Shown: positions 565 through 22,387 of the stretch, piece after piece | How positions within the stretch are numbered: the first letter of the stretch is position 1 | Layout: every line of letters begins with the position of its first letter | NCBI GenBank assembly: GCA_048615135.1 | Contig: JBMCMJ010000001.1 | Coordinates: forward strand, 1-35,422 | Length of the DNA stretch: 35,422 nucleotides | Reading direction: 5' to 3' | DNA from: Pseudomonadota bacterium | GTDB lineage: Bacteria > Pseudomonadota > Alphaproteobacteria > Geminicoccales > Geminicoccaceae | The notes under the pieces: model-generated | Databases searched by the model: none | Told to the model about the DNA's origin: nothing | Seen by the model: the letters and a program-made list of their open reading frames with translations, nothing else | Position numbers and translations under genes: made by a program

Positions 565-746
565 CGCGTCAGGCTAGGGCTTGATGCGCCGCACGCGGAA
601 GCTGGCGATGCACCCCCACCGACAGGCATCGGGACGCCGTTGCCTCGCTGCGGTCACCGGCCTCTTCACGGCGTCCTCACCGGAACGTGCCTGGACCGTC
701 GGCCGGCATCGGCGATCATGCGGGCCAGACAAGTACGGAGGGCGCC

Positions 747-1337
747 ATGACCCAGGCTTACCGGATGCACCTGCCACCGACCACGCTCGACGGGGCTGAT
801 GCGGACCAGCGGCGCGTCCTGGAGCGAGCCCGAGAGCGGCTCGGCTTCGTGCCCAACATGTACGCCAACATGGTGGCCTCGCCCGGCCTGCTCGAGACCT
901 ACATGGACGGCTACGAGCGCTTCCGGGCCGATTCGGGGTTCACGGCCGGCGAACAGGAGGTGGTGTTCTTGACGATCAGCCGGATCAACGGCTGCACCTA
1001 TTGCATGGCGGCGCATTCGATGCTGGCAACGAAAGTCGCCAAGTTGCCGTCGACGGAGATCGAGGCCCTGCGCACGGGTGGCGAACTCGCCGATCCCAAG
1101 CTGCGCGCCCTCGCGACATTCACGGAAGGCGTGGTCGAGAGCCGGGGCCGCCCCTCCACCCAGTCGACCAACGCCTTTCTGGCGGCCGGTTTCGGCGAAC
1201 GGCACGTGCTCGAGATCGTCCTCGCCCTCGCGGTCAAGACGCTCAGCAACTACGCCAACCATCTGTTCGAACCGGCCTTGGACGACCCCTTCGCGCCGTT
1301 CGCGTGGAACCCTTCGACTGTCCGCGACGCGGCCTAG
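747..1337 (+). CDS. AhpD-like / carboxymuconolactone decarboxylase (CMD) family protein with CxxC
   Basis: ORF 687..1337. Internal start MTQAYR at 747 preceded by GGAG (737-740). Motif RINGCTYCMAAH is typical of the CMD/alkylhydroperoxidase AhpD core. Confidence 0.8.
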   Translation: MTQAYRMHLPPTTLDGADADQRRVLERARERLGFVPNMYANMVASPGLLETYMDGYERFRADSGFTAGEQEVVFLTISRINGCTYCMAAHSMLATKVAKLPSTEIEALRTGGELADPKLRALATFTEGVVESRGRPSTQSTNAFLAAGFGERHVLEIVLALAVKTLSNYANHLFEPALDDPFAPFAWNPSTVRDAA

Positions 1338-1382: not shown

Positions 1383-2168
1383 ATGAACAAGCTCGACAAG
1401 GTGCGTGATCCGGCGCACGTCGCGCTGTCGGTGCGGACCATGACCGTGGCCGACGTGCGCGACGCCCTGCGGCTCGGCCTCGCCGATTTCATGGCCATTC
1501 CGACGCACGGCGTGCTGTTCGGGCTGTTCTACGCGATTGCCGGCCTGTTGCTCGTGACCGTGGTCGTCGAGCGCGCGCTGTTGCCCTTGATCGTGCCGCT
1601 GGTCGGTGGCTTCGCCCTGCTCGGGCCCTTCGCCTCGGTCGGCTTCTACGCGCTCAGCAAGCGCCGCGACTCGGGTGCGGAGACGCGGTGGTGGCACATG
1701 TTGGAGGGCTACCGCACGGCGGCGGCCGGATCGCTGCTCGGCCTCGGGCTCGTGCTGGCGGCGATCTTCCTCCTCTGGATGGTGGTCGCCGCCGGGTTAA
1801 CGGATTTGCTGCTGGGGCCCCTGCCCACAGCGATCCCGGCCGCGCTCGGCGTGCTCTTCGCCAGCACCGAGGGCTGGACACTGATGTTGGTGGGTGGCGT
1901 CGTCGGCCTCGGCTTCGCGCTATTCGTCTTTGCCATTTCCGTGGTGGCGTTTCCGTTGATCCTCGACCGGGAGATCGATGCGATCACCGCCGCAAACACG
2001 TCCATCCGGGCGGTACGTCTGAACCCCGGCCCGATGGTCGCGTGGGCGCTGATCGTCGCCGTCCTGCTCGGCTTCGGCGCGCTGCCGGTTCTGCTGGGTC
2101 TACCGGTCGTGCTGCCGGTGCTGGGCCACGCCACGTGGCATCTCTACCGCAAGGTGATGCCGGACTGA
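1383..2168 (+). CDS. Polytopic inner-membrane protein, DUF2189-like
   Basis: 261-aa ORF with 5-6 hydrophobic helices. The N-terminal pattern V.TMTVADVRDALRLGLADF resembles DUF2189 proteins. Family assignment is from memory only. Confidence 0.6.
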   Translation: MNKLDKVRDPAHVALSVRTMTVADVRDALRLGLADFMAIPTHGVLFGLFYAIAGLLLVTVVVERALLPLIVPLVGGFALLGPFASVGFYALSKRRDSGAETRWWHMLEGYRTAAAGSLLGLGLVLAAIFLLWMVVAAGLTDLLLGPLPTAIPAALGVLFASTEGWTLMLVGGVVGLGFALFVFAISVVAFPLILDREIDAITAANTSIRAVRLNPGPMVAWALIVAVLLGFGALPVLLGLPVVLPVLGHATWHLYRKVMPD

Positions 2169-2193: not shown

Positions 2194-2670
2194 ATGACAT
2201 CTGCTCTCGCCGTCCTTCGGGCCGCCGTCTTCCTGTCGCTGCTGGTCATCGCCCCGGCGCAGGCTTTGCAACCGCTGCCCGGCTGGGAGATCCGCGAGAC
2301 GCCGCACGACTACCCCACCCTGGTGACGCGCGTCGAAGCCGCCATCGAGGCGAGCCCGCTCGCCCTGGTGACGCGGGCGAGTGCCACCGTCGGGGCGCGG
2401 GCAATCGGTCGCGAAATCCCGGGCAACATGGTGATCGGGGTGTTCGCCCCGCCCTTCGCGGTGCGCATGCTGGAGGCGAGCGTGCAGGCCGGCATCGAGG
2501 CGCCGCTCCGGCTCTACGTGACCGAAAACGAGGACGGCACCGCGACCTTGAGCTGGCGCACCGCCAGCCACGTTTTTGCCCCCTACGACGACGGCGGCTC
2601 TGCCCTCGACGAGTTGGCGGTCGAACTGGACGGCCTGCTCCTGGCGATCGGTCGAGCGGCGATCGACTAG
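2194..2670 (+). CDS. Exported DUF302-domain protein
   Basis: Signal peptide MTSALAVLRAAVFLSLLVIAPAQA. The body (ASPLALVTRA...GNMVIGVFAPPFAVRMLE...LRLYVTENEDGTATLSW) matches the DUF302 pattern. Confidence 0.7.
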   Translation: MTSALAVLRAAVFLSLLVIAPAQALQPLPGWEIRETPHDYPTLVTRVEAAIEASPLALVTRASATVGARAIGREIPGNMVIGVFAPPFAVRMLEASVQAGIEAPLRLYVTENEDGTATLSWRTASHVFAPYDDGGSALDELAVELDGLLLAIGRAAID

Positions 2671-2782
2671 GCGGAGCGTGCCTCGTCTCGCGCTCCGCGG
2701 GGAGGCCGCATCCCCATCCGCATCGCACCCGTGACCGCCCGCACGAAGCGGAGTGGTGAGAACCCCAACGAAGGAGGACGAC

Positions 2783-3214
2783 ATGCGTCACACCCTCGCC
2801 ATTACGGCCCTCGCTGCCGCGGCAGCACTTGCAGGCACGTCCCTGGCGCAGAACCTCGATCCGGCCCTCGTCACCCAGCCGGCCGACGTCCGCCTGCACC
2901 AGGCACCGGCGGCCGAGCTGGAGGAAATGGGGGCCCAACTGTTCGCCGATCCGAGCCTCGGCGCGACCGGTGCGTCCTGCGCCACCTGCCACGAAGGCTT
3001 CCAGAACTATCGCGGCACCTTCGCCGAGCCCTATCCGCATTTCGTGCGGATGGGCCGTGACATGGCGGGAATGGACGAGGTGAAGGCGGCCGAGATGGTC
3101 CAGCTCTGCATGGTGGTGCCGATGGGGGCCGACCCCCTGCCCTGGGACAGCGTCGAGCTGGCCGCACTCACGGCTTATGTCGAGGCGGAACGCGCGCGCT
3201 TCGCCGCCCGCTGA
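2783..3214 (+). CDS. Periplasmic mono-haem c-type cytochrome
   Basis: Start MRHTLAITALAAAAALAG preceded by GAAGGAGGA (2770-2778). Has a signal peptide and the haem-binding motif CATCH. Confidence 0.75.
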   Translation: MRHTLAITALAAAAALAGTSLAQNLDPALVTQPADVRLHQAPAAELEEMGAQLFADPSLGATGASCATCHEGFQNYRGTFAEPYPHFVRMGRDMAGMDEVKAAEMVQLCMVVPMGADPLPWDSVELAALTAYVEAERARFAAR

Positions 3215-4078: not shown

Positions 4079-4360
4079 TCAGCCGCCCTCGGCTTCACCC
4101 TCCGCCTCGGCCTCGCCTTCTCCCTCCGCTTCGGCCTCGGCCTCACCCTCGGCTTCCGCTTCGGCTTCTCCTTCGGCCTCGGCCTCACCCTCGGCTTCGG
4201 CTTCCGCCTGGGCCAACACGATGGTCTCGTCCGCATTAGCGGCCATCGCCGCCGGAACCGGGTTCGCCGCGACCGCCGCCACCATGAAGGGGGCGGAGTA
4301 AAGCAGGCCGCGCGACACCGATGCCAGCAACGAACGCCGCCGCTGCTCCAACTCGGACAT
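4079..4360 (-). CDS. Small (93 aa) twin-arginine-signal-like protein with a C-terminal strictly alternating (Ala/Gly)-Glu repeat tail (copy 1)
   Basis: Start at 4360 preceded by GGGAGGA. Sequence: MSELEQRRRSLLASVSRGLLYSAPFMVAAVAANPVPAAMA/ANADETIVLAQ + (A/G-E)x20 + GG. RRxLLA, a hydrophobic region and AMA give a Tat/Sec-type signal. The leader is conserved with 16535..16783 despite many synonymous codon differences. Confidence 0.75.
   Translation of the reverse strand: MSELEQRRRSLLASVSRGLLYSAPFMVAAVAANPVPAAMAANADETIVLAQAEAEAEGEAEAEGEAEAEAEGEAEAEAEGEGEAEAEGEAEGG
4082..4207 (-). repeat. Coding low-complexity repeat GAR-GCN/GGN (units GEAEAE / GEAEAEAE)
   Basis: The plus strand reads gcctcggcttc-type 6-nt periodic repeats. 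Translation on the minus strand is AEAEAEGEAEAEGEAEAEAEGEAEAEAEGEGEAEAEGEAEGG. Confidence 0.9.
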
Positions 4361-4436
4361 GATGGTCCTCCCTCGTGTCGTGGATCGACACCCCACACTA
4401 AGCGGAGCCCCGGTCCGAGGTAACCTCGAGCCCGCT

Positions 4437-4495
4437 CACGATCGCGTCAGTCCGGGGCATGGTCCCGTGCCGGCTTTGGGCCCTGCACCTATGCT
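4437..4495. promoter_or_regulatory. Conserved two-box module in the divergent intergenic region (CACGATCGCGTCA, 37 nt, ACCTATGCT)
   Basis: The 13-mer (4437-4449) and 9-mer (4487-4495) recur with identical 37-nt spacing at 16864-16876 and 16914-16922, upstream of the paralogous small gene. The intervening sequence is not conserved. Confidence 0.4.
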
Positions 4496-4536: not shown

Positions 4537-6918
4537 ATGACCGAGGCACCAACGACCGCCAAGCGGCGCTACTGGCTCGGCGGCAACCGCCACGACGCCC
4601 AGGACCGCTTCTTCCGCGAAGCCCTCGATCCCGCACTCTGGGAGCCGGGCGACGCGACGGCATGGGAGGCCTGCTGGTACACCGGCATGCCGAAGGCCGA
4701 GGCATTCGAGGCGCTCGACGGCCGGAAGTGGGCGAACCACATCCCCGGCAACAACGCCCTCACGGTGAAGAGCCGGCTGGCCGCCACCCTGGCCGCCACC
4801 CGCGATCGGTTGCTGGCCGACGAAGGGCCGGACGGTGAAGGGCCGCAGCGCATGGGCTTCTTTCCCGAAACCTTCGCCATGCCCCGGCACTATCACGCCT
4901 TCCAGGCGGCGGCCCTGGCCGAGCCGGAGGCGCGGTGGATCCTCAAGCCCAAGAACGCCTCCAAGGGCCGCGACATCCGGCTGGTCGAGGATCCGGCGAC
5001 CGTGCCGACCGGTGATCGCTGGATGGTGCAGCGCTATCTGCACGAACCGCACACCATTCGCGGGCACAAATACGTGCTGCGGCTCTACGTCCTGATCACG
5101 TCGGTCGAGCCGCTACGCGTCTATCTCTACCACGAGGGCTTCGCCAAGCTCGCCTCCGAGCCCTACGACCTGAACGACCCCTCGAACGTGTTCAGCCACC
5201 TGACCAACCCCGACATCAACGAGACCAACACGGCGGTCGCCTCGCCCGTGGTGTTCATCCCGTTCCGCGACTATCGCGCCTGGCTGCGCGACCAGGGCCA
5301 CGACGATGCGGCGCTGTTCGAGCGGGTCCACGATCTCGTGACGCTCACCGCGATCGCCGCCCGCGAGCCGCTCCGCCAACGCCTCGCCGAGGTCCAAGCC
5401 GACACGAGCGGCTGCTACGAACTGCTCGGCATCGACTGCCTGATCGACGCGCGGCTGAAGCCTTGGATCATGGAGTGCAACCTGAACCCGTCGCTCGACG
5501 TCTGTGCCGCACCCGAGGATGGCGGCGAGGTCGAGTTCGCCATCAAGCGCCAGCTCGTGCACGACCTCGTGGCGATGCTCGGATTGAACCAACCGCAGCC
5601 GGCGCATCCCGGCCTGGAGGGTGAGGCCCGGCTCGTCGCCGAGGCGGCGGCGGAGCTGGCCCATGCCGGCGGCTGGCAGCGGCTCTTGCCACACCCCGAA
5701 CCGGAGCGCCACCTGCCGTTCTTCACGGCCCCCCGGCTCGCCGACGTCGTCCTCGCCGATGCCGTCGCCGGGCGGCGGGTGCATCTGCCGACCTTTTGCC
5801 GGCACCGCGCGGCCGAGATCGTCGAGCCCGACCACCTGGCGCTCTACGCCGAGGACGAGGGCGTGCTCTATCACCCGAACCCGACCGCGACGTGGCTCTG
5901 GCTGCACGCGACGGCCGGGCTCGATCCCGACGATCTCGCCGAGCGGCTGGCGGCCGAACGGGGTGCCGGCGACGCCGCCACCCGCCGGGCGGTGCGCGCC
6001 GAGGTCTGGGCGCAATTGGCCGACTGGGCTGCCGCCGGCCTGATTCGGCAGACGCGCGGAACGGAGGTGCCGGCGCACGCGGCTGCACCTCGCCCGGCTC
6101 CGATCGAGACGACGCTGCACGTGGGCCTGGGCGATGCGACGGTCAGTCTGGGTCTGCGAAGCGCGCCCGTCGTCGCGCGTCTCGATGGCCTCTGGGCGCG
6201 CGCGTCCGTTGGCGCGGAGCCGGTGACGCACCTGGAGGTGATCGAGACCCGCCGCGGCTACGGCCTCGTCCAGGCCGGGCGGTCGATCGCCGACGACTTG
6301 GCGTTGGCGGAGGTGGCGCCGGCCATCGTCGCGGCCCTTCTGTCGACGGCAGCCCCCCACGGCACCCTCACCGGCGCGGTCCTCTGCCCGCCCTCCGCAA
6401 GCACGGGAATTCTCGTTGCCCCCGGCCCCGTCGAGGCGAGCGACGCTCCGGCGTTCGCCCTGGCCAGAGCCCTGAAGGCGGAACTTTCGGGCGGGCTCCG
6501 CCTGGACGCATTGCCGACCGACCCTTGCCGGCCCCTGGGGCTGCCCGCTCGGGTGCCGCTCGGTCACGCCGGGGTGCGTCACCGTCACCGTTGGCCCGAT
6601 GGCCGAGAGGCGGGGCTCGTGCCGACGCGGCCGGCGCCTGCGCTGCCCATCGCTGCGGTGCTCGTGCCGACGACGGACCTCGCGGCCGACGACGCTTCGC
6701 TCGTCCCGCTCTCACCGGCGCGCACCCTTGCGGCCCTCTTGCCCGGCTTGCGCGGGGCCGAGGGAGGCCGGCCGAGTGCCGCCGACGTCAGCCGGCTCCA
6801 CGCTTGGCTGGAGAGCCGGCCGGGCTTCGCCGTGCCCGCGGACCGGCCCGCGGCCGTGGCGGCGGCGCTCCACCTCTGGCTGCGTCGGGAGCCGACCGGG
6901 GAGAAGCTCGCCGGCTGA
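4537..6918 (+). CDS. Tubulin-tyrosine-ligase-like (TTL/TTLL family ATP-grasp) enzyme fused to a PqqD-like peptide-recognition segment and a P-loop-less HprK-like C-terminal segment
   Basis: ATG 4537 preceded by GGGGAGAG. Ordered TTL hallmarks: WANHIPGNNALTVKSRL, RWILKPKNASKGRDIRL, WMVQRYLHEP, HKYVLRLYVLITS, LRVYLYHEGFAKLA, FSHLTNPDIN, CYELLGIDCLIDARLKPWIMECNLNPSL. The C-terminal half is described under findings. Confidence 0.8.
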   Translation: MTEAPTTAKRRYWLGGNRHDAQDRFFREALDPALWEPGDATAWEACWYTGMPKAEAFEALDGRKWANHIPGNNALTVKSRLAATLAATRDRLLADEGPDGEGPQRMGFFPETFAMPRHYHAFQAAALAEPEARWILKPKNASKGRDIRLVEDPATVPTGDRWMVQRYLHEPHTIRGHKYVLRLYVLITSVEPLRVYLYHEGFAKLASEPYDLNDPSNVFSHLTNPDINETNTAVASPVVFIPFRDYRAWLRDQGHDDAALFERVHDLVTLTAIAAREPLRQRLAEVQADTSGCYELLGIDCLIDARLKPWIMECNLNPSLDVCAAPEDGGEVEFAIKRQLVHDLVAMLGLNQPQPAHPGLEGEARLVAEAAAELAHAGGWQRLLPHPEPERHLPFFTAPRLADVVLADAVAGRRVHLPTFCRHRAAEIVEPDHLALYAEDEGVLYHPNPTATWLWLHATAGLDPDDLAERLAAERGAGDAATRRAVRAEVWAQLADWAAAGLIRQTRGTEVPAHAAAPRPAPIETTLHVGLGDATVSLGLRSAPVVARLDGLWARASVGAEPVTHLEVIETRRGYGLVQAGRSIADDLALAEVAPAIVAALLSTAAPHGTLTGAVLCPPSASTGILVAPGPVEASDAPAFALARALKAELSGGLRLDALPTDPCRPLGLPARVPLGHAGVRHRHRWPDGREAGLVPTRPAPALPIAAVLVPTTDLAADDASLVPLSPARTLAALLPGLRGAEGGRPSAADVSRLHAWLESRPGFAVPADRPAAVAAALHLWLRREPTGEKLAG

Positions 6919-7059
6919 CGCGCCGGTCGCGGAGCGGTGATCGCCCGTGGGCCGATCGTCAGTGGGACATCCGGCGCGGCGCCGTACCCTCGGTGGTGTC
7001 CGGTCGCGGTACCCAAGCTCGCGTCGGCCGCTGCACCAACGAATGTCCGGAGAGCCACC

Positions 7060-7584
7060 ATGTCCTCGATCCGTCTCACCCGCCGCGGCGCCCTCGGGCT
7101 CGCCTCGGCGATCACCGTGCTCGCCACCGTGCCCGCCTTCGCGGATACCGCCACGCCGCACAACGTCGACGCGGCCGGACTGATGCTGCGCGGCTACGAC
7201 CCGGTCGCCTATTTCACCCTCGGCACGCCGACACCCGGCTCAACCGACATCACCGCCGAGCACGACGGGGCCACCTACCGCTTCGCCTCGAACGAGCACC
7301 GCGAGCTGTTCCTGGCCGACCCTGCCGCCTACGCGCCGGCCTATGGCGGATACTGCGCGCTCGGCGCGGCGATGGGGCGCAAGTTCGACGGCGATCCGGA
7401 GCTCTGGGCGGTGGTCGACGGGCGGCTGTTCGTCAACGTCAACGCCGGCGCCCAGCGGCGCTGGCAGTCCAACCCGGAAGGCTTCGTCACGACGGCCGAC
7501 CACAACTGGCCGCTGATCGAGGGGCTGGGCGACGGCACGCTCGAGACCAGCCCGCCCGCAGGGTTGCGCGTCGGCGCCAACTGA
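7060..7584 (+). CDS. Exported YHS-domain protein (Tat-like signal)
   Basis: Internal start MSSIRLTRRGALGLASAITVLATVPAFA. Pattern GYDPVAYF...ATYRFASNEHRELFLADPAAYAPAYGGYCA is typical of the YHS-domain family. Confidence 0.7.
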   Translation: MSSIRLTRRGALGLASAITVLATVPAFADTATPHNVDAAGLMLRGYDPVAYFTLGTPTPGSTDITAEHDGATYRFASNEHRELFLADPAAYAPAYGGYCALGAAMGRKFDGDPELWAVVDGRLFVNVNAGAQRRWQSNPEGFVTTADHNWPLIEGLGDGTLETSPPAGLRVGAN

Positions 7585-7651: not shown

Positions 7652-7771
7652 GGACGGTGGTGGCGCAGCCGGTCCTCGCCTCGGCGTGCCCGTCGCGCAC
7701 GGATTGGTGACTTGGCCGCGCACACCGGCCGATCGCATGATGGCCCCGGAGGACAGGGGACGAGGCGTGCG

Positions 7772-8305
7772 ATGAGCCAGGTGGTGCAGACGAACACGGA
7801 CGAGGTCGACCGGCTGCTCGCGCGCGTGGCCGCGCTGTTCGACGGTATCGTGCCGAACCTCTATCGCGTGCTGGCGCGCAATCCGGTGACGCTCCGCGCC
7901 TTCGTCGACCTCGAGACGGCGCTCGACACAGCCCCGGTCCTCGGCAACGGCGCGCACGCCCTGATCGCGCTGGAGGTCGCGGTGCGCGCGGGCTGCCGCT
8001 ATTGCGAGGGCGTGTTCGTCAAGGAGGCCGCCGCCGCCGGCATCGCCAAGGCCAGCGTCGATGCGGTGCGCCGTGGTGGACAACCGGCCGTGCCGGCCGA
8101 CGCGGTCGTGGTCGAGGCGACCCGCCGCCTGATCGAGAGCGACGGCCGGCTCGGCCACCTGGAGCGGGCGCGGTTCCGCGAGGCCGGCATCGGCCAGGCG
8201 GAGCTGCTGGAAATGCTCACGGTGATCGCGACCTACAGCCTGGCGACGCGCGCCAACAACCTGGCGCGTACCCGCATCGATCCGGAATACCGCCTCGACC
8301 CTTGA
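7772..8305 (+). CDS. AhpD-like / CMD family protein with CxxC
   Basis: Internal start MSQVVQTN. Motif VRAGCRYCEGV in a CMD-like helical context. Confidence 0.7.
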   Translation: MSQVVQTNTDEVDRLLARVAALFDGIVPNLYRVLARNPVTLRAFVDLETALDTAPVLGNGAHALIALEVAVRAGCRYCEGVFVKEAAAAGIAKASVDAVRRGGQPAVPADAVVVEATRRLIESDGRLGHLERARFREAGIGQAELLEMLTVIATYSLATRANNLARTRIDPEYRLDP

Positions 8306-8317
8306 GCTGCCCGATCC

Positions 8318-8869
8318 TCAGTCGCGGGGAGCGGTGGCTTCGTCGAGCCTGCGGACCAGCGCCGCGTAGCCGTCGCGGGCGAGCATCCGGCCGGCCGCGG
8401 CCGTGGCGTGCGGATCGCTCGGATAGCCCAGGGCTTCGACCCAACGGTTCATGAGGGCGAAAAAGCCCGTGACCAGGGCCGCGTGGTGCAGCGCGGTCTC
8501 GTCCCAGCCGGCGTCGAGCACGGCGCTGCGGTCGGCATCGGTGATCGTGGCTGGTGCCCGCGTCAGCTTGTCGACGAAGGCGAGCACCGGGGCCAGCCGC
8601 GAAGGCGGCTCGGTTTCGCCGGCAAGGCCCGCGAGGGCGGCCTCGTCCAGCCCCAGACCGAGCGCCGCAGCACGATGGGCGTCGCGGCAGAAGTCGCAAC
8701 CATTGGCGATCGAGACGCGGACGGCGATGGCCTCGCGCTCGGCGGCGGTGAAGGGCGACGGTCCGCGCATGACCGCCTCGGCGAAGTCGTGCAGCGGCCG
8801 GGCAATGGCGGGATGCGCCCGAAAGGCATCCATCAGAGAGCGCGTGCGGATCGGCGCGGACGACGTCAT
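8318..8869 (-). CDS. CMD family peroxidase-related protein with CxxC
   Basis: ATG 8869 preceded by AGGAGGA. Motifs ERE.I...VS..NGCDFCRDAH and a C-terminal FFALMNRW pattern are typical of the peroxidase-related CMD subgroup. Confidence 0.8.
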   Translation of the reverse strand: MTSSAPIRTRSLMDAFRAHPAIARPLHDFAEAVMRGPSPFTAAEREAIAVRVSIANGCDFCRDAHRAAALGLGLDEAALAGLAGETEPPSRLAPVLAFVDKLTRAPATITDADRSAVLDAGWDETALHHAALVTGFFALMNRWVEALGYPSDPHATAAAGRMLARDGYAALVRRLDEATAPRD

Positions 8870-12234: not shown

Positions 12235-12480
12235 CTCGTCCTCCTCCTCCGGGAGATCGCTCTCCGATGGCGACCCACCGCCGACTCTGGCAAGGAACGC
12301 CGGGTTGCGCCGTAGCGAAGGCCGCATCGCGCAGAGCCGTGATCAGTCGTGAGGCGGCGCCCTTGGGAAGATCCGGAAACATTCGGCGCCGCGGAGCCGG
12401 AGTGGGCGGAGGCTCCCGCGCACGGGACCGTGTTCGGGATTGAGTGGCCCGAATGTCCGCTCGAGCATCATCATCGTCGC

Positions 12481-14442
12481 ATGAACGAGGTCGCCACCAT
12501 GCCAGCCCCTTCGGCCGTGACGAACCGCTACCGCCCGATCGCCGACTACGCCGCGATCGGCGACTGTCACGGTGCCGCGTTGATTGCCGGCGATGCGCGG
12601 ATCGACTGGTGCTGTTTTCGCCGGTTCGACGCCGCACCGGTGTTCTGCCGCCTGCTCGACGATGCGCGCGGCGGCTTCTGGTCGATGGCGCCACGCGCAC
12701 CGGTCGAGGCCGAACGCGGCTATCGCCCCGACACCAACATCCACGAGACGGTCTTCACCACCGCGACGGGCCGCGTCCGCGTCGTCGACTTCATGCCGCT
12801 CGGCCGCAAGGACGGTGCGGGCGCGCACGACTACGTCTCGATCCGAACACCGCACTGGCTCGTCCGGCGCGTCGAGGCGCTCGACGGCGAGGTCGAGATG
12901 GCGACCCACTACCGTCCGAGTGCCGGCTTCGAGCGGCTTTCCGTGCCCTTGCGCCGCGAAGGCTCGGCCGTGACCGGCGAGGACGTGCCGGCCCTGTTCG
13001 CCAGCGTCGAGTTGACGGTCCAGGCGGACGGTGCCCACGGACGCTTCCGGCTGCGGGCGGGCGAGAGCGCCCTGTTCGTGCTGGCGGCGACCCACGTCAC
13101 CGGTCAAACGCCCCTCGAGCGCGTGCACGCGCTCGAGGCGGTCACCGAGGCGTTCTGGCGCGAGTGGATCGCCTATTGCCGCTATCGCGGCCCCCACGCG
13201 GCACGGGTGCGCCGGAGTGCCTTGGCGCTGAAGCTCATGACCCATGCCCCGAGCGGCGCGCTGGCCGCCGCCCTCACGACGTCGTTGCCGGAAGCCCTCG
13301 GCGGCGAGCGGAACTGGGACTACCGCTACAGCTGGCTGCGCGATTCGTGCTTCACGCTCTACGCCCTGGCGGTGCTCGGCTATGGCGGCGAGGCGCGCGC
13401 CTATGTCGACTATCTGGGTCGGTGCATGCGGGCGACGCTGCCGCGGCTGCAGATCATGTACGGCCTCGACGGCGAGACCGCGCTCGACGAGCAGGAATGG
13501 CCCGAACTCGACGGCTACGCGTCGAGCCGGCCGGTGCGCACCGGCAACGGCGCCTACGATCAGCGCCAACTCGACGTCTACGGCCAGGTGCTCGACCTCG
13601 CCCTGCTCTACGAACGCCTCGGCGGGCGGCTCGGCCGCCAGGAGCGGCGGCTGCTCGCCACGCTCGCGGAAGAGGTCGCGCGGTCGTGGGAGGAACCCGA
13701 CCAGGGCCTCTGGGAGATGCGCGGCCCGCCCGCCCACCACGTCCACGGCAAGCTGATGGCCTGGGTCGCGGCAGATCGGGCCGCAGTGCTCGGCCTCGGC
13801 GACGCGGCGCGTTGGCGGGCCCTCGCCGACCGGATCCGTGACCAGATTCTGGAGCGGGGCCGCCTCGGCGGCACGCTGGCCCTGCAGCAGGCCTACGAGC
13901 GCGCACAACCCGACGCGGCGACGTTGCTGGCCGTGGCGGTCGGCTTTCCCCTCGACGATGCGACGCTGCGGGCGACCATCGAGGCGGTCGAGCGTGACCT
14001 CGTCACCGACGATCTCGTGCACCGCTATCGGACCGAGGACGGCCTCGACGGCGACGAGGGGGCGTTCGTCGCCTGCAGCTTCTGGCTGGTCGATGCCTAC
14101 CTGGCCGCCGGCCGCGGCGACGACGCCCGGCGGCTGTTCGACCAGCTTTGCGAACGCGCGGGCCCACTCGGCCTGCTCGCCGAGGAGATCGAACCGCATA
14201 CGGGGGCGTTTCTCGGCAACACGCCCCAGGCCTTCAGCCACTTGGCCCTGGCGGGTTCGGCGGTGAACCTGGAACTGCATCGCCGCTTCGGCGTCGCCGG
14301 CGTGCGCGGCACCTATGCCGATCGCGCCGCCCGCGCCGTGGGCCACGTGTTCGGCTGGCGGGCGATCTGGGCGGCGATGCGCGCCTGCGGGCGGGCGGGC
14401 CGGCTGACGAGCTCGCGGGCCTCGGTCCTGCTGTGGCCATGA
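12481..14442 (+). CDS. Glycoside hydrolase family 15 (glucoamylase/trehalase-like) protein
   Basis: PIADYAAIGDCHGAALIAGDARIDWCCFRRFD, GGERNWDYRYSWLRDS and FVACSFWLVDAY are classic GH15 motifs. The start is uncertain (12481 or 12499; the track ORF opens at 12349). Confidence 0.85.
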   Translation: MNEVATMPAPSAVTNRYRPIADYAAIGDCHGAALIAGDARIDWCCFRRFDAAPVFCRLLDDARGGFWSMAPRAPVEAERGYRPDTNIHETVFTTATGRVRVVDFMPLGRKDGAGAHDYVSIRTPHWLVRRVEALDGEVEMATHYRPSAGFERLSVPLRREGSAVTGEDVPALFASVELTVQADGAHGRFRLRAGESALFVLAATHVTGQTPLERVHALEAVTEAFWREWIAYCRYRGPHAARVRRSALALKLMTHAPSGALAAALTTSLPEALGGERNWDYRYSWLRDSCFTLYALAVLGYGGEARAYVDYLGRCMRATLPRLQIMYGLDGETALDEQEWPELDGYASSRPVRTGNGAYDQRQLDVYGQVLDLALLYERLGGRLGRQERRLLATLAEEVARSWEEPDQGLWEMRGPPAHHVHGKLMAWVAADRAAVLGLGDAARWRALADRIRDQILERGRLGGTLALQQAYERAQPDAATLLAVAVGFPLDDATLRATIEAVERDLVTDDLVHRYRTEDGLDGDEGAFVACSFWLVDAYLAAGRGDDARRLFDQLCERAGPLGLLAEEIEPHTGAFLGNTPQAFSHLALAGSAVNLELHRRFGVAGVRGTYADRAARAVGHVFGWRAIWAAMRACGRAGRLTSSRASVLLWP

Positions 14443-15140
14443 CGCAAACCCCGGACGAAGCCGGCGCGCTCGGCCGCATCGACATTCTCGAAGGGCTCGA
14501 GCCGGCCGTGCTGGCCTCGTTGGCTGCGGGCTGTCGCTGGCGCCGACACGCACCGGGCGCCGTGCTGATCGCCCAGGACGAACTGGGTGCCGACGTGTTC
14601 TTCCTGGTCGAGGGAACGGCGCGGGTACTCGACACTGGTCCGGACGGCCGCGAAGTCACCTACAGCGTGGTGGACGCGGGTGCGGTGCTGGGCGAACTCG
14701 CCGCCCTCGATGGCGGCGGCCGTTCCGCCAGCGTCGTCGCCACGACCGTCTGCCGGACGGCCCAGATCCAGGCCAAGGCCTTCCGGGAACTGCTGTTGGC
14801 CCATCCCGAAGTGGCACTCGCTCTTCTGAAGCGGCTCGCCCGCGCCCTGCGCTTCGCCGACCTCCAGATCACCGAGTTGGCGACGATGGGGGCGGTGCAG
14901 CGCATCGCCCGGCATCTGCTCCGCCTGCCGGCGCGAGGCGAGGACACCGCCTTCGTCATCGACCCGTTGCCGACCCAGGAGAGCAACGCCTCGGCGACCG
15001 GCACCACGCGCGAGACCGTCGGACGGATCATGGTGCAGCTGCGCCAAGCCGGCGTGGTCGCCCGCCAGGGACGGTCCCTTCGCGTGCCGCTTCCGGCCAA
15101 GCTGCGCGCGCTGGCGGAGCTGGACGAGCCGGGCGCATAA
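14439..15140 (+). CDS. Crp/Fnr family transcriptional regulator
   Basis: Start MTQTPDEAG overlaps the GH15 stop (ATGA at 14439-14442). Has a cNMP-binding domain (FFLVEGTARV...GELAALDGGGRSASVVA) and a C-terminal HTH (TRETVGRIMVQLRQAG). Confidence 0.85.
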   Translation: MTQTPDEAGALGRIDILEGLEPAVLASLAAGCRWRRHAPGAVLIAQDELGADVFFLVEGTARVLDTGPDGREVTYSVVDAGAVLGELAALDGGGRSASVVATTVCRTAQIQAKAFRELLLAHPEVALALLKRLARALRFADLQITELATMGAVQRIARHLLRLPARGEDTAFVIDPLPTQESNASATGTTRETVGRIMVQLRQAGVVARQGRSLRVPLPAKLRALAELDEPGA

Positions 15141-15164: not shown

Positions 15165-16340
15165 CTATCCGACCTCGGCCGGCTCGTTGCGGAGGCCGAA
15201 ACGCGGCCGCAGGCGGACGCCGAGCCAAGCGCCCACGAGGGCCGCCGCCAGCCAGAGCCAGCCGTGCAGGCTGCCGCTCATCGTGCCGCCGAGAAAGGCG
15301 CCGATGTTGCAGCCATAGGCGAGCCTGGCGCCGTAGCCCATCAAGAGCCCGCCAAGCACGGCGGCCAGGGCGTGCCGCCAGGGGACGACCAGCGGGGGGT
15401 CGAAGCGACCGGCGAGGGACGAAGCGATCAACGCGCCGAGGATGACCCCGATATTCGTCACCGAGGTCGTGTTCTGCAGCGGACTGGCGTCGAGCGCCCC
15501 GCGCGCCCAGGCGGCGCTCCAGAACGGCACGCCCGAAAGGTCGCCGCCCAGGGCCTCGAAGAGCTGACCGCCCCAGAGCGCGAAGGCGAAGGTCACACCC
15601 CAGGGCTGGCCGGAGAGCCAGAAGACCGCGACCGCCAGCACGGCGAGCGCGCCCGCGGCCGCGAAGGGCGGCCACGGCCCGCGGAGGATGTCGCCCGTGG
15701 GGCTCGGGGCCGGCACCGGACGACGTTCGAGCCGGATGACGAGCACCGCCACCCCGCCGAGGATCGAGGCTTGCGCGAGCCAACCGCCGAGGATGCCGAA
15801 CTCGACGACGAGGCTGACTGCCGGCAGTTGCGGCAGCGTGCGCCACAGATGCAGGTGGAAGGTCGCCGCCAGCGAGCCGACGACGAACGCGGCGAGGGTC
15901 AGCAGCATCTTCGTGCTGCCGCCGCCGAGCGTGAAGAGCGTGCCGGACCCGCAGCCATTGGCGAGTTGCATGCCGACGCCGAAGAGAAAGGCGCCGACGA
16001 CCAGCTCCAGGGCCAAGGGCGCGACGGCACCACCGGCGGTGAACCCCGGCAACCAGCCGCCGATGAGCGGAAAGAAGGCGAGCGTGCCCAGCGCGACGAT
16101 CGCGAGTTGGATACGCACGCCCCTGCCCTCGCGATTCAGCAGCCACCGGCGCCAATAGGCAGTGAAGCCCAGCGCACCGTGGTAGAGCACCACGCCGAGG
16201 CCGGCGGCGACCAGCATGAGCAGCGCCTGCCGGGGCGCCACCGTCGCCCCGGTGATCGCCAGGAACAGGGCGAGCGCCGCGGTGCCGACGAGCATGGGTA
16301 GCGGTTGGACGGGGCGTCCCGGCTCGATCCTAGCGGCCAT
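15165..16340 (-). CDS. YeeE/YedE family sulfur-compound (thiosulfate-type) transporter
   Basis: Polytopic membrane protein with the two conserved Cys motifs QLANGCGSGTLF and ARLAYGCNIGAF. The start codon is uncertain. Confidence 0.85.
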   Translation of the reverse strand: MAARIEPGRPVQPLPMLVGTAALALFLAITGATVAPRQALLMLVAAGLGVVLYHGALGFTAYWRRWLLNREGRGVRIQLAIVALGTLAFFPLIGGWLPGFTAGGAVAPLALELVVGAFLFGVGMQLANGCGSGTLFTLGGGSTKMLLTLAAFVVGSLAATFHLHLWRTLPQLPAVSLVVEFGILGGWLAQASILGGVAVLVIRLERRPVPAPSPTGDILRGPWPPFAAAGALAVLAVAVFWLSGQPWGVTFAFALWGGQLFEALGGDLSGVPFWSAAWARGALDASPLQNTTSVTNIGVILGALIASSLAGRFDPPLVVPWRHALAAVLGGLLMGYGARLAYGCNIGAFLGGTMSGSLHGWLWLAAALVGAWLGVRLRPRFGLRNEPAEVG

Positions 16341-16534: not shown

Positions 16535-16783
16535 TCAGCGCGCCGCTTCGCCCTCGGCCTCCGCCTCGCCCTCCGCTTCGGCTTCCGCTTCACCCTCGGC
16601 CTCTGCCTCGCCTTCGGCCTCCGCCTCGGCTTCGGCGACGCTGCCGGTGCGGTCGATCCCGCCGGTAGTCGCCGCGGGCGTACATCCGGCGGCGACCACC
16701 GCCAGCATCAGGGGCGCCGCGTACAATAGCCCGCGTGACACCGTCGCCAGCAGCTGCCGCCTGTTCTGCTCGATCTCCGACAT
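16535..16783 (-). CDS. Small (82 aa) twin-arginine-signal-like lipoprotein with a C-terminal (Ala/Gly)-Glu repeat tail (copy 2)
   Basis: Start at 16783 preceded by GGGAGGGA. Sequence: MSEIEQNRRQLLATVSRGLLYAAPLMLAVVAAG/CTPAATTGGIDRTGSV + (A/G-E)x15 + AAR. 24 of 32 leader residues are identical to copy 1. Lipobox-like VAAGC (Cys codon 16682-16684). Confidence 0.75.
   Translation of the reverse strand: MSEIEQNRRQLLATVSRGLLYAAPLMLAVVAAGCTPAATTGGIDRTGSVAEAEAEAEGEAEAEGEAEAEAEGEAEAEGEAAR
16547..16636 (-). repeat. Coding low-complexity repeat GAR-GCN/GGN (units GEAEAE / GEAEAEAE)
   Basis: Minus-strand translation is AEAEAEAEGEAEAEGEAEAEAEGEAEAEGE. Same unit structure as 4082..4207. Confidence 0.9.
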
Positions 16784-16863
16784 GATCCGGTCCCTCCCCA
16801 CTGTGGATGGTTGGTTGGTCATCGTTAGACCGAGCTCGGGAAAGCCAGAAGCCAACGGCGCAT

Positions 16864-16922
16864 CACGATCGCGTCAACCGTCACTAGCGGCGGTCGTTGA
16901 GAGATGTCGGCGGACCTATGCT
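16864..16922. promoter_or_regulatory. Second copy of the conserved two-box module (CACGATCGCGTCA, 37 nt, ACCTATGCT)
   Basis: 13-mer at 16864-16876 and 9-mer at 16914-16922. Spacing is identical to 4437..4495. The module sits 81 nt from the small-gene ATG, against 77 nt at locus 1. Confidence 0.4.
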
Positions 16923-16985: not shown

Positions 16986-18440
16986 ATGGCGAGAGACGAA
17001 CGTGGCCTCCGTCTGACCACCTGCAGCGAGTGTGCGGCGCGCGCGTTCGACGATGCGGTGGCGTGCAGTCTCGAATACCGGCTGCGGATCGGTTCGGTGG
17101 TCGGGAGGATGCTGGATGCCGACCCGGACTTCGTCATGGGCCGGGTGCTGGTCGGCTATCTGATGATCGGCCGCGCCACGCCCGCGGGCGTGCAGGAAGC
17201 CCGCGCGGCGTTGGTCGCTGCCGAAGCGTGTGCGGGCGATCACCTGACCCGCCGCGAACACATGCACGTCGCGGCCCTGGCGGCCCTGGTGGCGGGCGAG
17301 CGGCAGCGTGCCTGCCGCATCTGGGAGGAGATCCTGACCGAGCACCCGCGCGACCTGCTCGCGCTGCGGCGGGTCCACCTCGAGAGCTTCTGGCTCGGCG
17401 AGCAGCGGCGGATGCGCGACGTGGTGATGCGCGCGCTGCCGGCCTGGGACGCGGCCGTGCCGCGCTTCGGCGACGTGCTCGGCATGGCCGCCTTCGGCCA
17501 CGAGGAGTTGGGCGACTACGCCACCGCCGAACGGCTCGGCCGGCAGGCCGTCGCGCTCAATCCCGAGGACATGTGGTCGATCCACGCCGTGGCCCACGTC
17601 CTCGAGATGCAGGGCCGCCACGACGAGGGGCTCGGCTGGCTCGACTTCGCCCCCGATCGCTGGGCCGACCGGGCGGCCATGCGCACGCATCTCTGGTGGC
17701 ACAAGGCCCTCTTTCACTTCGAGCGGGGCGAGCTGGACGCGGCCCTCGACCTCTACGACCGGAGCGTCGATCCGGGCCCGGAGATGTTCTACATCGACAT
17801 GCACAACTGCGCCTCGCTGCTCGCCCGGATCGAACTGCTGGGTGGCGACGTCGGCGACCGCTGGGCGAGCCTCGCCGAGCGTGCGGCCCTTTGGGTCGAT
17901 AACCACGAGATGGCCTTCACCGACGTCCACACCATCGTGCCGCTGGCCCGCACCCGACGGCCGGAGGCGACCGAGCATCTGGCCTCGCTCCGGCGGGCGG
18001 CCGCGGCTCCGGGTGAGGCGGCGCGGCGGCTCAAGGAGCACGTCTTGCCGGTGAGCCACGCGATCAACGCCTTCTATGCCGGTGACTACCGCAACGCGAT
18101 CGACCTGCTCCTTCCGCTCGAGGACGACCTCGTGCCCCTCGGCGGCAGCCATGCCCAGCGCGACCTGTTCCATCTGATCCTGTTGGAGAGTGCGCTCCGC
18201 GCCGGCCGCTTCGATCTCGCCCGAGCGCTTGCCGCTGAGCGGGTGATGCTGCGCGAGCACAGCCACGGCAGCTGGCTCAAATTCGCCGAAGCGCTCGAAG
18301 GCCTCGGTGATCACGCGGCCGCACGGCATGCACGCAACAGCGCGGGACCTCGTGGCCATGCCCGATCACGCCCGATGCGCACCCGCCAGCACGCCCGGAT
18401 CGACGAGATGACGATGCCGATCGCGGCGGCGAACGATTAG
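16986..18440 (+). CDS. TTC38-like tetratricopeptide-repeat family protein
   Basis: Internal start MARDERGL. An all-helical TPR-like protein whose pattern (DPDFVMGRVL...HVAALAALVAGE...EILTEHPRDLLALR...WSIHAVAHVLEMQGR..G..WL) matches bacterial TTC38 homologues. Confidence 0.7.
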   Translation: MARDERGLRLTTCSECAARAFDDAVACSLEYRLRIGSVVGRMLDADPDFVMGRVLVGYLMIGRATPAGVQEARAALVAAEACAGDHLTRREHMHVAALAALVAGERQRACRIWEEILTEHPRDLLALRRVHLESFWLGEQRRMRDVVMRALPAWDAAVPRFGDVLGMAAFGHEELGDYATAERLGRQAVALNPEDMWSIHAVAHVLEMQGRHDEGLGWLDFAPDRWADRAAMRTHLWWHKALFHFERGELDAALDLYDRSVDPGPEMFYIDMHNCASLLARIELLGGDVGDRWASLAERAALWVDNHEMAFTDVHTIVPLARTRRPEATEHLASLRRAAAAPGEAARRLKEHVLPVSHAINAFYAGDYRNAIDLLLPLEDDLVPLGGSHAQRDLFHLILLESALRAGRFDLARALAAERVMLREHSHGSWLKFAEALEGLGDHAAARHARNSAGPRGHARSRPMRTRQHARIDEMTMPIAAAND

Positions 18441-21778: not shown

Positions 21779-22387
21779 TCAGCTTCCCGCTCGGGGCACG
21801 CCGCGACTACCGGAACTCGAGACAGGCCTCACCTGTTCGCCGCGGGTAGTCACACCGAGGCCCAGAACGGTCCGGTTGGCGTACGCGAAATAGGCCACGA
21901 CCTGGTTGAGCTCCAGGATCGCACCGTCGTCGAGCCCGGCTTCGCGGAGCGTGTCCACGGCGCTGCGGTGAACCTCGGCCGGAGTCCGGGTCAGGCGCTT
22001 GGCGTAACGCATCATCGCCAGCGACGCTCCGGCCAGGGCATCCTCCGGCCGATCGGCGACGAGCGCCGCCTCGATCACCGCCGCCCGGGCTTCGTCGACC
22101 AGTGCCCGGCGCATGCCGCGGGCATGGTGGGCGACGCAGTAGGTACAGCCGTTGAGGGCGCTGACGTACACGCCGACCGCCTCCAGGAGCCAAGCCGGCG
22201 TGCGGTTGTCCGGGTGGTGCAGCACGGCGCGGTAGAGCGCCAGATGGCCGTCCAGCGTGTGGGGGCGCAGACCGTGGACCTGGATGACGTTGTCCACCGT
22301 GCCGTCGGCGCCGCGGACGCGCTCGTAGAGCCGGCGCAGCCGCCCCTCCGCCAGCTGCGGAACGATCGTGTCGATCCAGCTCATCAC
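21779..22387 (-). CDS. CMD family peroxidase-related protein with CxxC
   Basis: WIDTI...AEGRLRRLYERV....G.VDNVIQVHGLRPHTL, ALNGCTYCVAHH and ELNQVVAYFAYANR are characteristic of the peroxidase-related CMD subgroup. Confidence 0.85.
   Translation of the reverse strand: MMSWIDTIVPQLAEGRLRRLYERVRGADGTVDNVIQVHGLRPHTLDGHLALYRAVLHHPDNRTPAWLLEAVGVYVSALNGCTYCVAHHARGMRRALVDEARAAVIEAALVADRPEDALAGASLAMMRYAKRLTRTPAEVHRSAVDTLREAGLDDGAILELNQVVAYFAYANRTVLGLGVTTRGEQVRPVSSSGSRGVPRAGS

Follow-up and report, generated by a model that had tools for sequence, protein, structure and literature searches.

In eukaryotes, the Glu-Gly repeats of RPGR-ORF15 are a substrate of TTLL5, which recognizes them via a separate docking element, the RPGR basic domain (PMC13052805). 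In actinobacteria, lasso peptide leaders use a YxxPxL motif to bind the B1 protein, which is a recognition element (RRE) for peptides that are made on ribosomes and modified after translation (RiPPs) (PMC6784204). Aravind and colleagues (Iyer et al., 2009, as cited in PMC3495828) reportedly argued that TTL domains originated in bacteria. No description of a bacterial system that combines TTL and RRE (PqqD) domains, or of its substrates, was found in the literature searched. In this work, we analyzed a 35,422-nt stretch of DNA from a member of Geminicoccaceae (hereafter the window, meaning the whole stretch) and found one gene for a TTL-RRE enzyme and two genes for small proteins, copy 1 and copy 2, that have a similar leader and an acidic repeat tail. 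Our reading, which we consider moderately probable, is that copies 1 and 2 are two substrates of this single cytoplasmic TTLL-type ligase and are modified and then exported. The features concerned are as follows.

16535-16783 (-): copy 2, a predicted pre-lipoprotein of 82 aa whose tail is an acidic GEAE-type repeat (range includes the stop codon), from the open reading frame (ORF) and its translation
16792-16797 (-): Shine-Dalgarno sequence GGAGGG, 8 nt 5' of the copy 2 ATG
16685-16783 (-): leader/signal peptide of copy 2 (aa 1-33), from family column conservation and hydropathy
16706-16723 (-): YxxPx[L/M] motif of copy 2 (Y21-A-A-P24-L-M26), proposed RRE docking site, from family conservation
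16682-16693 (-): putative lipobox A31-A32-G33-C34 of copy 2, from sequence, kept in the ortholog of locus L002
16637-16681 (-): Thr/Pro/Gly-rich linker of copy 2 (aa 35-49, TPAATTGGIDRTGSV), different from copy 1 and from the ortholog
16538-16636 (-): acidic repeat tail of copy 2 (aa 50-82), (EA)n broken by G, proposed modification site
4079-4360 (-): copy 1, a 93-aa paralog with a signal-peptidase-I-type site (AMA/A), divergent from the TTL gene
4537-6918 (+): TTL-RRE enzyme, 793 aa, with a TTLL-type ATP-grasp domain (~aa 20-350), an RRE (~415-505), and a PEPCK/HprK-like domain (~520-785)

By analogy, the RPGR-ORF15/TTLL5 pair is the closest eukaryotic parallel to this locus. As in eukaryotic TTLLs, the bacterial enzyme domain is a TTL-family ATP-grasp domain, nearest to those of TTLL6 and TTLL7, and the small proteins resemble TTLL substrates in having disordered Glu-rich repeats spaced by Gly or Ala. 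Recognition is likewise proposed to occur through an element apart from the modified repeat. Unlike eukaryotic TTLLs, the bacterial enzyme would dock by a RiPP-type RRE rather than a microtubule-binding or cofactor-interaction domain; its substrates carry export signals and would end outside the cytoplasm. The locus also resembles graspetides and microviridins, whose ATP-grasp ligases modify the Glu/Asp side chains in a ribosomal precursor with a leader. However, graspetide enzymes belong to another ATP-grasp clade and make intramolecular lactones or lactams, whereas a TTL-type domain would add free amino acids, and the core here is a long low-complexity repeat. RimK, which acts on ribosomal protein S6, is also a bacterial ATP-grasp enzyme that puts Glu on a Glu-rich protein tail, but its target is a single cytoplasmic protein, which it lengthens at the C-terminus. 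In this family, the products are exported and the repeat is internal in members fused to a cytochrome, so that side-chain branching would be required. Thus, the parts combined here, namely RRE-guided ATP-grasp modification, TTLL glutamylation, and lipoproteins, are of known kinds. What is unusual is a leader that is at once a RiPP-type leader, a signal peptide, and the carrier of a lipobox.

Copy 2 starts with an ATG at 16783, ends with a TGA at 16535-16537, and has the product MSEIEQNRRQLLATVSRGLLYAAPLMLAVVAAGCTPAATTGGIDRTGSVAEAEAEAEGEAEAEGEAEAEAEGEAEAEGEAAR. Its leader has R8, R9, and R17 in the n-region, the motif LLxxVSRGLLY, and a hydrophobic stretch from L19 to A32, with a hydropathy peak of 2.3 across AAPLMLAVVAA. 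Glutamate accounts for 15 of the 33 residues of the tail, and 16 of the 49 residues of the mature part are acidic. The GC contents of the leader at the three codon positions (0.68/0.47/0.88) match the coding signature of this window, which has 70% GC. Copy 1 has GGGAGG at a distance from its start codon like that of the copy 2 Shine-Dalgarno sequence, and a hairpin plus T-run lies 3' of copy 1.

The initial annotation regarded copy 2 as a true paralog of copy 1 and as a real, selected coding sequence rather than repeat noise. Our recounts are in agreement. The two leaders are identical at 24 of 32 residues, the same twelve of these 24 residues use different codons, and nucleotide identity is 22, 29, and 18 of 32 at the first, second, and third codon positions, respectively. 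The leader dN/dS (NG86) is 0.31/1.09 between the two copies and 0.19/1.48 between copy 2 and its L002 ortholog. The common unit order claimed for the tails was also recovered, with 26 residues (AEAEAE-GEAEAE-GEAEAEAE-GEAEAE) identical in both copies, and the linkers are as unrelated as stated, having just 5 of ~17 positions in common. The codons of the 26 repeat residues differ at 15 third positions and at no first or second positions. Because the repeat is imperfect in DNA (72-75% matches), it is held at the protein level and not by slippage. This 26-residue identity between the tails of copy 2 (16538-16636) and copy 1 (4082-4210) is not found in the tail of the L002 ortholog (1060-1161), which differs; it could stem from constraint on the register of the repeat or from ancient gene conversion.

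Long ORFs occur in all frames of high-GC DNA and the repeat is of low complexity, such that a GC-rich simple repeat, open by chance in the copy 2 frame, might be suspected instead of a gene. The purely synonymous differences in the repeat, leader dN/dS ratios of 0.13-0.28, a third-position GC of 0.88, the Shine-Dalgarno sequence, one ortholog, and >100 homologs have already refuted this explanation, to which we assign a negligible probability. Copy 2 was also called as a gene on two further contigs from the same population, both with the identical 82-aa protein, but their DNA is at least 99.8% identical and they are not independent evidence. With scores of 52.9 bits for copy 2 and 54.5 bits for copy 1 against the leader hidden Markov model (HMM), copy 2 is almost certainly a genuine member of the leader-plus-repeat family described below.

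For the family census, 80 genome loci were fetched around homologs of the enzyme, and HMM counts were made over 83 sources. The family profile consists of the leader [KR]xxLLxxLS[RK]GLxYxxPx[LM] followed by a hydrophobic stretch, with a Glu-X repeat that has Gly/Ala spacers; copy 2 matches both parts. A motif scan found 66 ORFs with leader and acidic repeat in 59 sources (57 loci plus the two copies of the window), and the leader HMM found 119 members in 77 of the 83 sources, nearly all beside a TTL-RRE protein of ~800 aa. The small genes are usually located directly downstream of the TTL gene or divergent from it, and this adjacency spans Alpha- and Gammaproteobacteria. Two or three leader-bearing genes accompany one TTL gene in 37 of the 77 sources, a pattern that fits the earlier suggestion of one TTL-like enzyme serving both copies in trans. 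The leader begins with a basic residue (108/109), then L-L, x-x-L, S/A, R/K, G/Q/N, L, x, Tyr (in 83 members), x-x-Pro (114/114), x, and L/M (in 100 members), and it ends with ~12 hydrophobic residues and a conserved A-x-A-type site. This conservation is far above that of a generic signal peptide.

The small proteins are poorly visible to standard searches. Pfam and NCBIfam gave only low-complexity noise for copies 1 and 2, and no curated family covers them. A word-indexed protein search with the copy 2 leader had no match, and the same kind of search with a profile of 31 leader sequences returned 14 matches, all named "hypothetical protein" and many of them partial. The family is poorly represented in, or filtered from, the word-indexed protein set. 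An HMM profile of the two leaders was run exhaustively against 1.84 billion representative proteins. The top match was P0121, the ortholog of copy 2 (E = 7e-14), and the second true match was the copy-1-like protein of L002; four other matches were repeats of unrelated proteins and were rejected. A metagenome scan with the leader pattern found two loci and no new lipobox member. Homologs of the leader elsewhere, whose absence would have spoken against the initial annotation, are therefore plentiful (the 119 members), while close relatives of the leader variant of copies 1 and 2 are rare. In the source databases, the small proteins are named "hypothetical protein" and often "partial". Contigs often end within the GEAE repeat (e.g., L012 3839-4066, L019 12501-12758, and L029 6048-6233), and the repeat-related database proteins P0127, P0129, and P0137 are labeled "partial". 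The breaking of short-read assemblies by the repeat helps to explain the under-annotation of the family.

The partner enzyme has a clear TTL domain (Pfam TTL, 2.7e-53). In a sequence search of the PDB, its closest solved relatives are the glutamylases TTLL6 (E = 7e-36) and TTLL7 (5e-32), with TTLL11, the glycylase TTLL3 (3e-11), and TTL (2e-9) well behind. The AlphaFold model of the enzyme (pLDDT 88, pTM 0.86) matches TTLL6 in Foldseek with a TM-score of 0.8, and the ATP-grasp residues K137, D300, E313, and N315 are invariant across 28 homologs. The closest relatives are glutamylases, and glutamate is the likeliest amino acid that would be added, although sequence is an uncertain guide to specificity. 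In PDB entries, wild-type TTLL6 reads SGCQGRGI and EVNHSPS, and an engineered TTLL6 reads SGARGRGI and EVNISPS. At the two positions that separate the wild-type (Q, H) from the engineered (R, I) enzyme, the residues are R and L in the family consensus and K and L in the window enzyme. Mahalingan and colleagues reportedly found in 2020 that these residues switch TTLL6 from elongation to branch initiation, which we take as a lead only. The enzyme has more than 438 full-length homologs with 40-57% identity, and its hosts include Halomonas and relatives, Marinobacter, Alkalilimnicola, Aquisalimonas, other Ectothiorhodospiraceae, Robiginitomaculum, Pararhodobacter, and Geminicoccaceae. Database names of these homologs include "PqqD family peptide modification chaperone", "tubulin polyglutamylase TTLL5", and "amylase"; the last is given to many of them without visible reason. 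The C-terminal domain (aa ~520-785) has a PEPCK/HprK-like fold (Foldseek E = 8e-5, low TM-score), and no Walker A motif was seen in it on reading the sequence.

Between these two domains, residues ~415-505 of the enzyme model form a beta-beta-beta-alpha-alpha-alpha unit. Pfam PqqD was found in 23 of 28 enzyme homologs (best E = 1e-8). A model of the C-terminal half (pLDDT 83) matched the lasso B1 proteins TbiB1 (5v1v and 5v1u; TM-score 0.83) and 6jx3 in Foldseek, with TM-scores of 0.82-0.85 overall, and all three structures were solved with the leader peptide bound. The leaders agree with this structural match in that they have YxxPx[L/M] where actinobacterial lasso leaders have YxxPxL, and strict matching found the motif in 70 of the 119 members. 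Consistent with these observations, we propose YxxPx[L/M] as the RRE docking motif. Unlike lasso systems, the RRE here is fused to a TTL ligase, with neither a lasso cyclase nor a B2 protease, and the leader doubles as a signal peptide.

Evidence for export comes from fusion proteins. In 36 of the 119 members (e.g., L017 3744-4382, L018 9121-9825, L020 9013-9729, L050 9080-9808, and L076 14830-15498, plus 31 others), the leader and GEAE-type repeat form the N-terminal part of a fusion with a SoxA/TsdA-type mono-heme cytochrome c that has a CxxCH motif. Since c-type cytochromes mature outside the cytoplasm, the leader has to work as an export signal and the repeat has to lie in the periplasm. 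The initial annotation offered a RiPP precursor leader and a signal-peptide paralog as alternatives. Each of them is borne out, the former by the RRE and YxxPx[L/M] and the latter by the 36 fusions, and only the choice between them does not hold. A conserved Cys in the VQ[LIV]CM segment of the fusions may be the distal heme ligand. The window has a cytochrome of the same type.

2753-3214 (+): SoxA/TsdA-type mono-heme cytochrome c, Pfam PF21342 (9.8e-10)

This protein has an ordinary signal peptide and no repeat, and its homologs elsewhere carry the family leader and GEAE repeat. That the acidic module and the cytochrome are fused elsewhere and separate in the lineage of the window suggests a joint function. 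Electrostatic docking of the acidic tail on the window cytochrome was considered and dropped, as the mature cytochrome has ~17 acidic vs. 8 basic residues by hand count.

Export is the only step with direct support, from the fusions and the lipobox, and acidic proteins are common in halophiles. It is therefore worth considering that the small proteins are unmodified exported acidic proteins, serving as cation-binding or solubility modules with cytochrome c, that the enzyme has another substrate, and that the leader is kept for a special export or assembly factor. We consider this unlikely because the small gene adjoins the enzyme gene across two proteobacterial classes, the RRE is nearest to leader-bound lasso B1 and the leader has the matching motif, and Glu-rich repeats are the canonical TTLL substrate. 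Even less probable is a classical RiPP pathway, in which the leader only guides the enzyme, a dedicated protease removes it, the modified core is secreted, and the hydrophobic stretch and Cys are incidental. A short precursor, a conserved leader, and an ATP-grasp enzyme with an RRE would all suit such a pathway, and ATP-grasp RiPPs exist as graspetides. However, in the 36 fusions the leader and repeat precede a heme-binding cytochrome c domain, and the leaders terminate like signal peptides, with AxA or a lipobox. Furthermore, no leader peptidase or ABC/PCAT exporter was found to be conserved in the TTL neighborhoods, which implies general signal peptidases.

The export route is a related question. 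Where the twin-arginine motif (S/T)RRxFLK would precede the h-region, the sequences are N-R-R-Q-L-L-A in copy 2 and R-R-R-S-L-L-A in copy 1, and RRxLL, a hydrophobic stretch, and a long acidic n-region occur in both window copies and in Halomonas members. Twin-arginine translocation (Tat) accepts substrates completed in the cytoplasm. Branching in the cytoplasm might then make the substrates unfit for the general secretory (Sec) pathway, with the RR motif of the window being functional. We regard Tat export as possible, although distinctly less likely than Sec export. The second basic position is Arg in only ~45 of 109 members, with KR, RQ, RK, or KQ in those of Marinobacter, Ectothiorhodospiraceae, and Robiginitomaculum, and the h-region of copy 2 is strongly hydrophobic. 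The small proteins had no match to the TAT_signal HMMs (PF10518 and TIGR01409) at E up to 10 for Pfam and up to 1 for NCBIfam. Moreover, the fused cargo is a c-type cytochrome, which is normally Sec-exported before its maturation. Together, these results do not support Tat as a family-wide route.

The cleavage sites of the two copies are as initially described, VAAG/C34 in copy 2 and AMA/A in copy 1, and copy 2 is probably the lipid-anchored and copy 1 the soluble version of the same type of protein. A Cys directly after the hydrophobic stretch was found in just two of the 119 family members, copy 2 and P0121 (L002 904-1164, in a metagenome-assembled genome of Geminicoccaceae), which is the sole ortholog found for copy 2. 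The enzymes of the two loci are 57% identical. In the sequence contexts AVVAAG-C34-TPAATT (copy 2) and VVVAAG-C34-APATID (P0121), AAGC is kept while the flanking linker has diverged, and the Cys34 codon is TGT in the former and TGC in the latter. This conservation despite a synonymous codon change favors the lipobox cysteine proposed in the initial annotation. Copy 2 has the basic n-region, a 14-residue h-region, A-A-G-C with Cys34, and a Thr/Pro/Gly tether behind the Cys, as seen in bacterial lipoproteins processed by Lgt and LspA, and no charged residue is present from P24 to G33. V30-A31-A32-G33-C34 fits the relaxed lipobox pattern, which we take to be PROSITE PS51257, while the strict form [LVI][ASTVI][GAS]C, with Cys expected between residues 15 and 35, asks for L/V/I at -3, where copy 2 has Ala. 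The PROSITE lipoprotein rule asks for a basic residue within the first 7 residues, whereas R8 and R9 are the first basic residues of copy 2. Other differences from bacterial lipoproteins are that Leu is usual at -3, that the signal peptide of copy 2 carries a family-specific conserved sequence, and that the mature part is merely 49 residues long and mostly acidic repeat.

Based on these findings, we propose the following steps for the two copies. The RRE of the enzyme would bind the conserved leader (LLxxVSRGLLYxxPxM) of the newly made precursor via YxxPxM, and the ATP-grasp domain would then ligate amino acids, likeliest Glu, onto the gamma-carboxyls of the repeat glutamates, in the manner of eukaryotic TTLLs acting at tubulin tails and RPGR Glu-Gly repeats. 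The enzyme lacks a signal peptide and depends on ATP, so that any modification would take place before export. The leader would next serve as the export signal, more likely through Sec than through Tat, and the fusions support export for the family as a whole. Copy 1 would be cut at AMA/A by signal peptidase I and freed into the periplasm. In contrast, the lipobox predicts that copy 2 would receive a diacylglyceryl group on Cys34 and be processed by signal peptidase II. Its mature part, in which a brief Thr/Pro/Gly tether leads into a polyanionic Glu-Ala(-Gly) repeat, would thus be held at a membrane.

The genomic arrangement around copy 2 involves two neighboring genes and an element found upstream of both copies.

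16986-18440 (+): TPR protein, divergent neighbor of copy 2 (pair kept in L002), weak TPR Pfam matches
15165-16340 (-): YeeE/YedE sulfur-transport protein, Pfam Sulf_transp (1.4e-62), same strand as copy 2 and 195 nt downstream of it
16861-16876 (-): upstream element TGACGCGATCGTGATG of copy 2 (78-93 nt 5' of the ATG), intergenic with the divergent TPR gene
4434-4449 (-): upstream element TGACGCGATCGTGAGC of copy 1 (74-89 nt 5' of the ATG), intergenic with the TTL gene

Copy 2 was initially described as unlinked, which overstates its separation. The distances, 12.2 kb to copy 1 and 9.6 kb to the TTL gene, place these genes in one neighborhood, and the position of the ortholog, the common upstream element, and the YeeE neighbor also point to linkage. 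In L002, 1.5 kb separates the lipobox gene from that of the enzyme. The lipobox gene is divergent from a TPR homolog that is 70-85% identical, as in the window. In 6 other loci, a YeeE homolog is encoded no more than 10 kb away from the TTL gene. In L006, the enzyme gene is followed divergently by the gene string small gene - DoxX - small gene - DUF302 - YeeE. The upstream element has 14-16 nt common to copies 1 and 2 (consensus TGACGCGATCGTGA(G/T)(C/G), core T-R-ACG-Y-S-ATCGTGA), and these two sites are the only matches with up to 2 mismatches in the window. Its core is also located upstream of both small genes of L002 (~795-815 (+) and ~2610-2630 (-)) and of the small gene of L001 (~2195-2215 (-)). 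Rfam and tRNA scans of the window gave no match, and the element is therefore no known RNA. It may be a promoter or operator, and copies 1 and 2 are probably co-regulated through it.

Several points weigh against our proposal. The modification, export, and lipidation of copy 2 are steps that we infer throughout, as is the amino acid added by the enzyme, and a branched chain would presumably have to pass SecYEG. The PqqD match of the window enzyme itself (2e-4) is just below the Pfam cut-off (22.0 vs. 23.4 bits), and Val replaces the Tyr of YxxPxM in the Marinobacter cytochrome fusions. With Ala at -3, no basic residue among the first seven, and occurrence in two genomes, the predicted lipobox of copy 2 is good but not textbook. 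The upstream element is based on five sequences from three related genomes, and a consensus scan found no promoter or terminator consensus around copy 2. Finally, the window has no gene for a protease, exporter, or eraser in the vicinity of copy 1 or copy 2.

Other genes recur near the TTL gene in the loci compared, some of them with members in the window.

2194-2670 (+): DUF302 protein, recurrent cluster neighbor in 13 loci
687-1337 (+): CMD/AhpD-like protein, recurrent cluster neighbor in 23 loci
Near the TTL gene in 40-58 loci: SoxA/TsdA-type cytochrome c
Near the TTL gene in 48 loci: DinB-like protein
Near the TTL gene in 39 loci: ECF sigma factor
Near the TTL gene in 24 loci: rhodanese
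Near the TTL gene in 23 loci: DUF3179 protein
Near the TTL gene in 27 loci (e.g., L014 17849-18604): Peptidase_C92, a YaeF/YiiX permuted papain-like amidase

Peptidase_C92 is a candidate eraser of the added residues. The recurrence of DinB-like, AhpD-like, rhodanese, and Peptidase_C92 genes would also suit a pearlin-like scaffold, to which the ligase appends an amino acid that these neighbors convert and the C92 amidase releases as a small molecule. This scheme appears highly improbable to us, given that the export signal, lipobox, and cytochrome c fusions put the repeat outside the cytoplasm and that DinB-like, rhodanese, and C92 genes, as well as those for an ECF sigma factor and DUF3179, were sought in the window and none was present. 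The recurrent His/Cys-type cytochrome c, YeeE, DoxX, DUF302, rhodanese, and AhpD-like proteins, together with the halophilic and alkaliphilic hosts, point to a periplasmic sulfur/redox function for the system that we propose. It is a matter of speculation that a tunable cation-binding polyanion takes part in periplasmic sulfur/redox chemistry in halophiles and alkaliphiles.

In a broader sense, these patterns may represent a bacterial "glutamylation code", in which an RRE-guided ligase seizes nascent signal peptides and branches the repeats before export, the products are free, lipid-anchored, or built into cytochromes, and the enzymes belong to the prokaryotic stock of eukaryotic TTLLs. We put this forward tentatively, with less confidence than the proposal for copies 1 and 2. 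If true, the tubulin-code field would gain a natural bacterial TTLL whose substrates are genetically defined and tubulin-tail-like and which occurs in the culturable genera Halomonas and Marinobacter, and the origin and minimal substrate rules of glutamylases would be open to direct testing. For the RiPP field, the system would contribute a fusion of an RRE with a TTL-type ligase, and a leader doubling as a Sec-type or lipoprotein signal peptide would couple modification to export. The lipobox paralog would further imply that one enzyme could supply soluble and membrane-tethered forms of one polyanion. In genome annotation, the small genes are overlooked or labeled hypothetical and the enzyme is widely mislabeled as an amylase, and the leader profile would recover this hidden family.

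Additional features were observed in the window and the related loci. The window has four CMD/AhpD-like paralogs (687-1337, 7712-8305, 8318-8869, and 21779-22387). A YHS-domain protein (6937-7584; NCBIfam "YHS domain-containing (seleno)protein", E = 1e-40) is encoded directly downstream of the TTL gene, and a GH15 glucoamylase/trehalase-like gene (12349-14442 (+)) is located between the TTL gene and copy 2. An ORF between the small genes of L002 (~1734-2000 (+)) has what is presumably a GH15-like end motif (GNFPRAFSHLALIG) and may be a gene remnant. A second assembly from the same population (GCA_048616995.1; L084 2450-3122) matches the window at 99.8% up to position 14688 and then has an FGE-sulfatase-like gene, which is either a strain rearrangement or a misassembly. 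Among the family members, some tails end in -GY, -SY, or -TY (L034 13114-13437, L042 12514-12852, L064 12874-13242, and the L074 ORF ending at 12826), recalling the terminal Tyr of alpha-tubulin. The repeats of Robiginitomaculum have His/Lys inserts (GEAEHHAKGEAE), which hints at metal binding.

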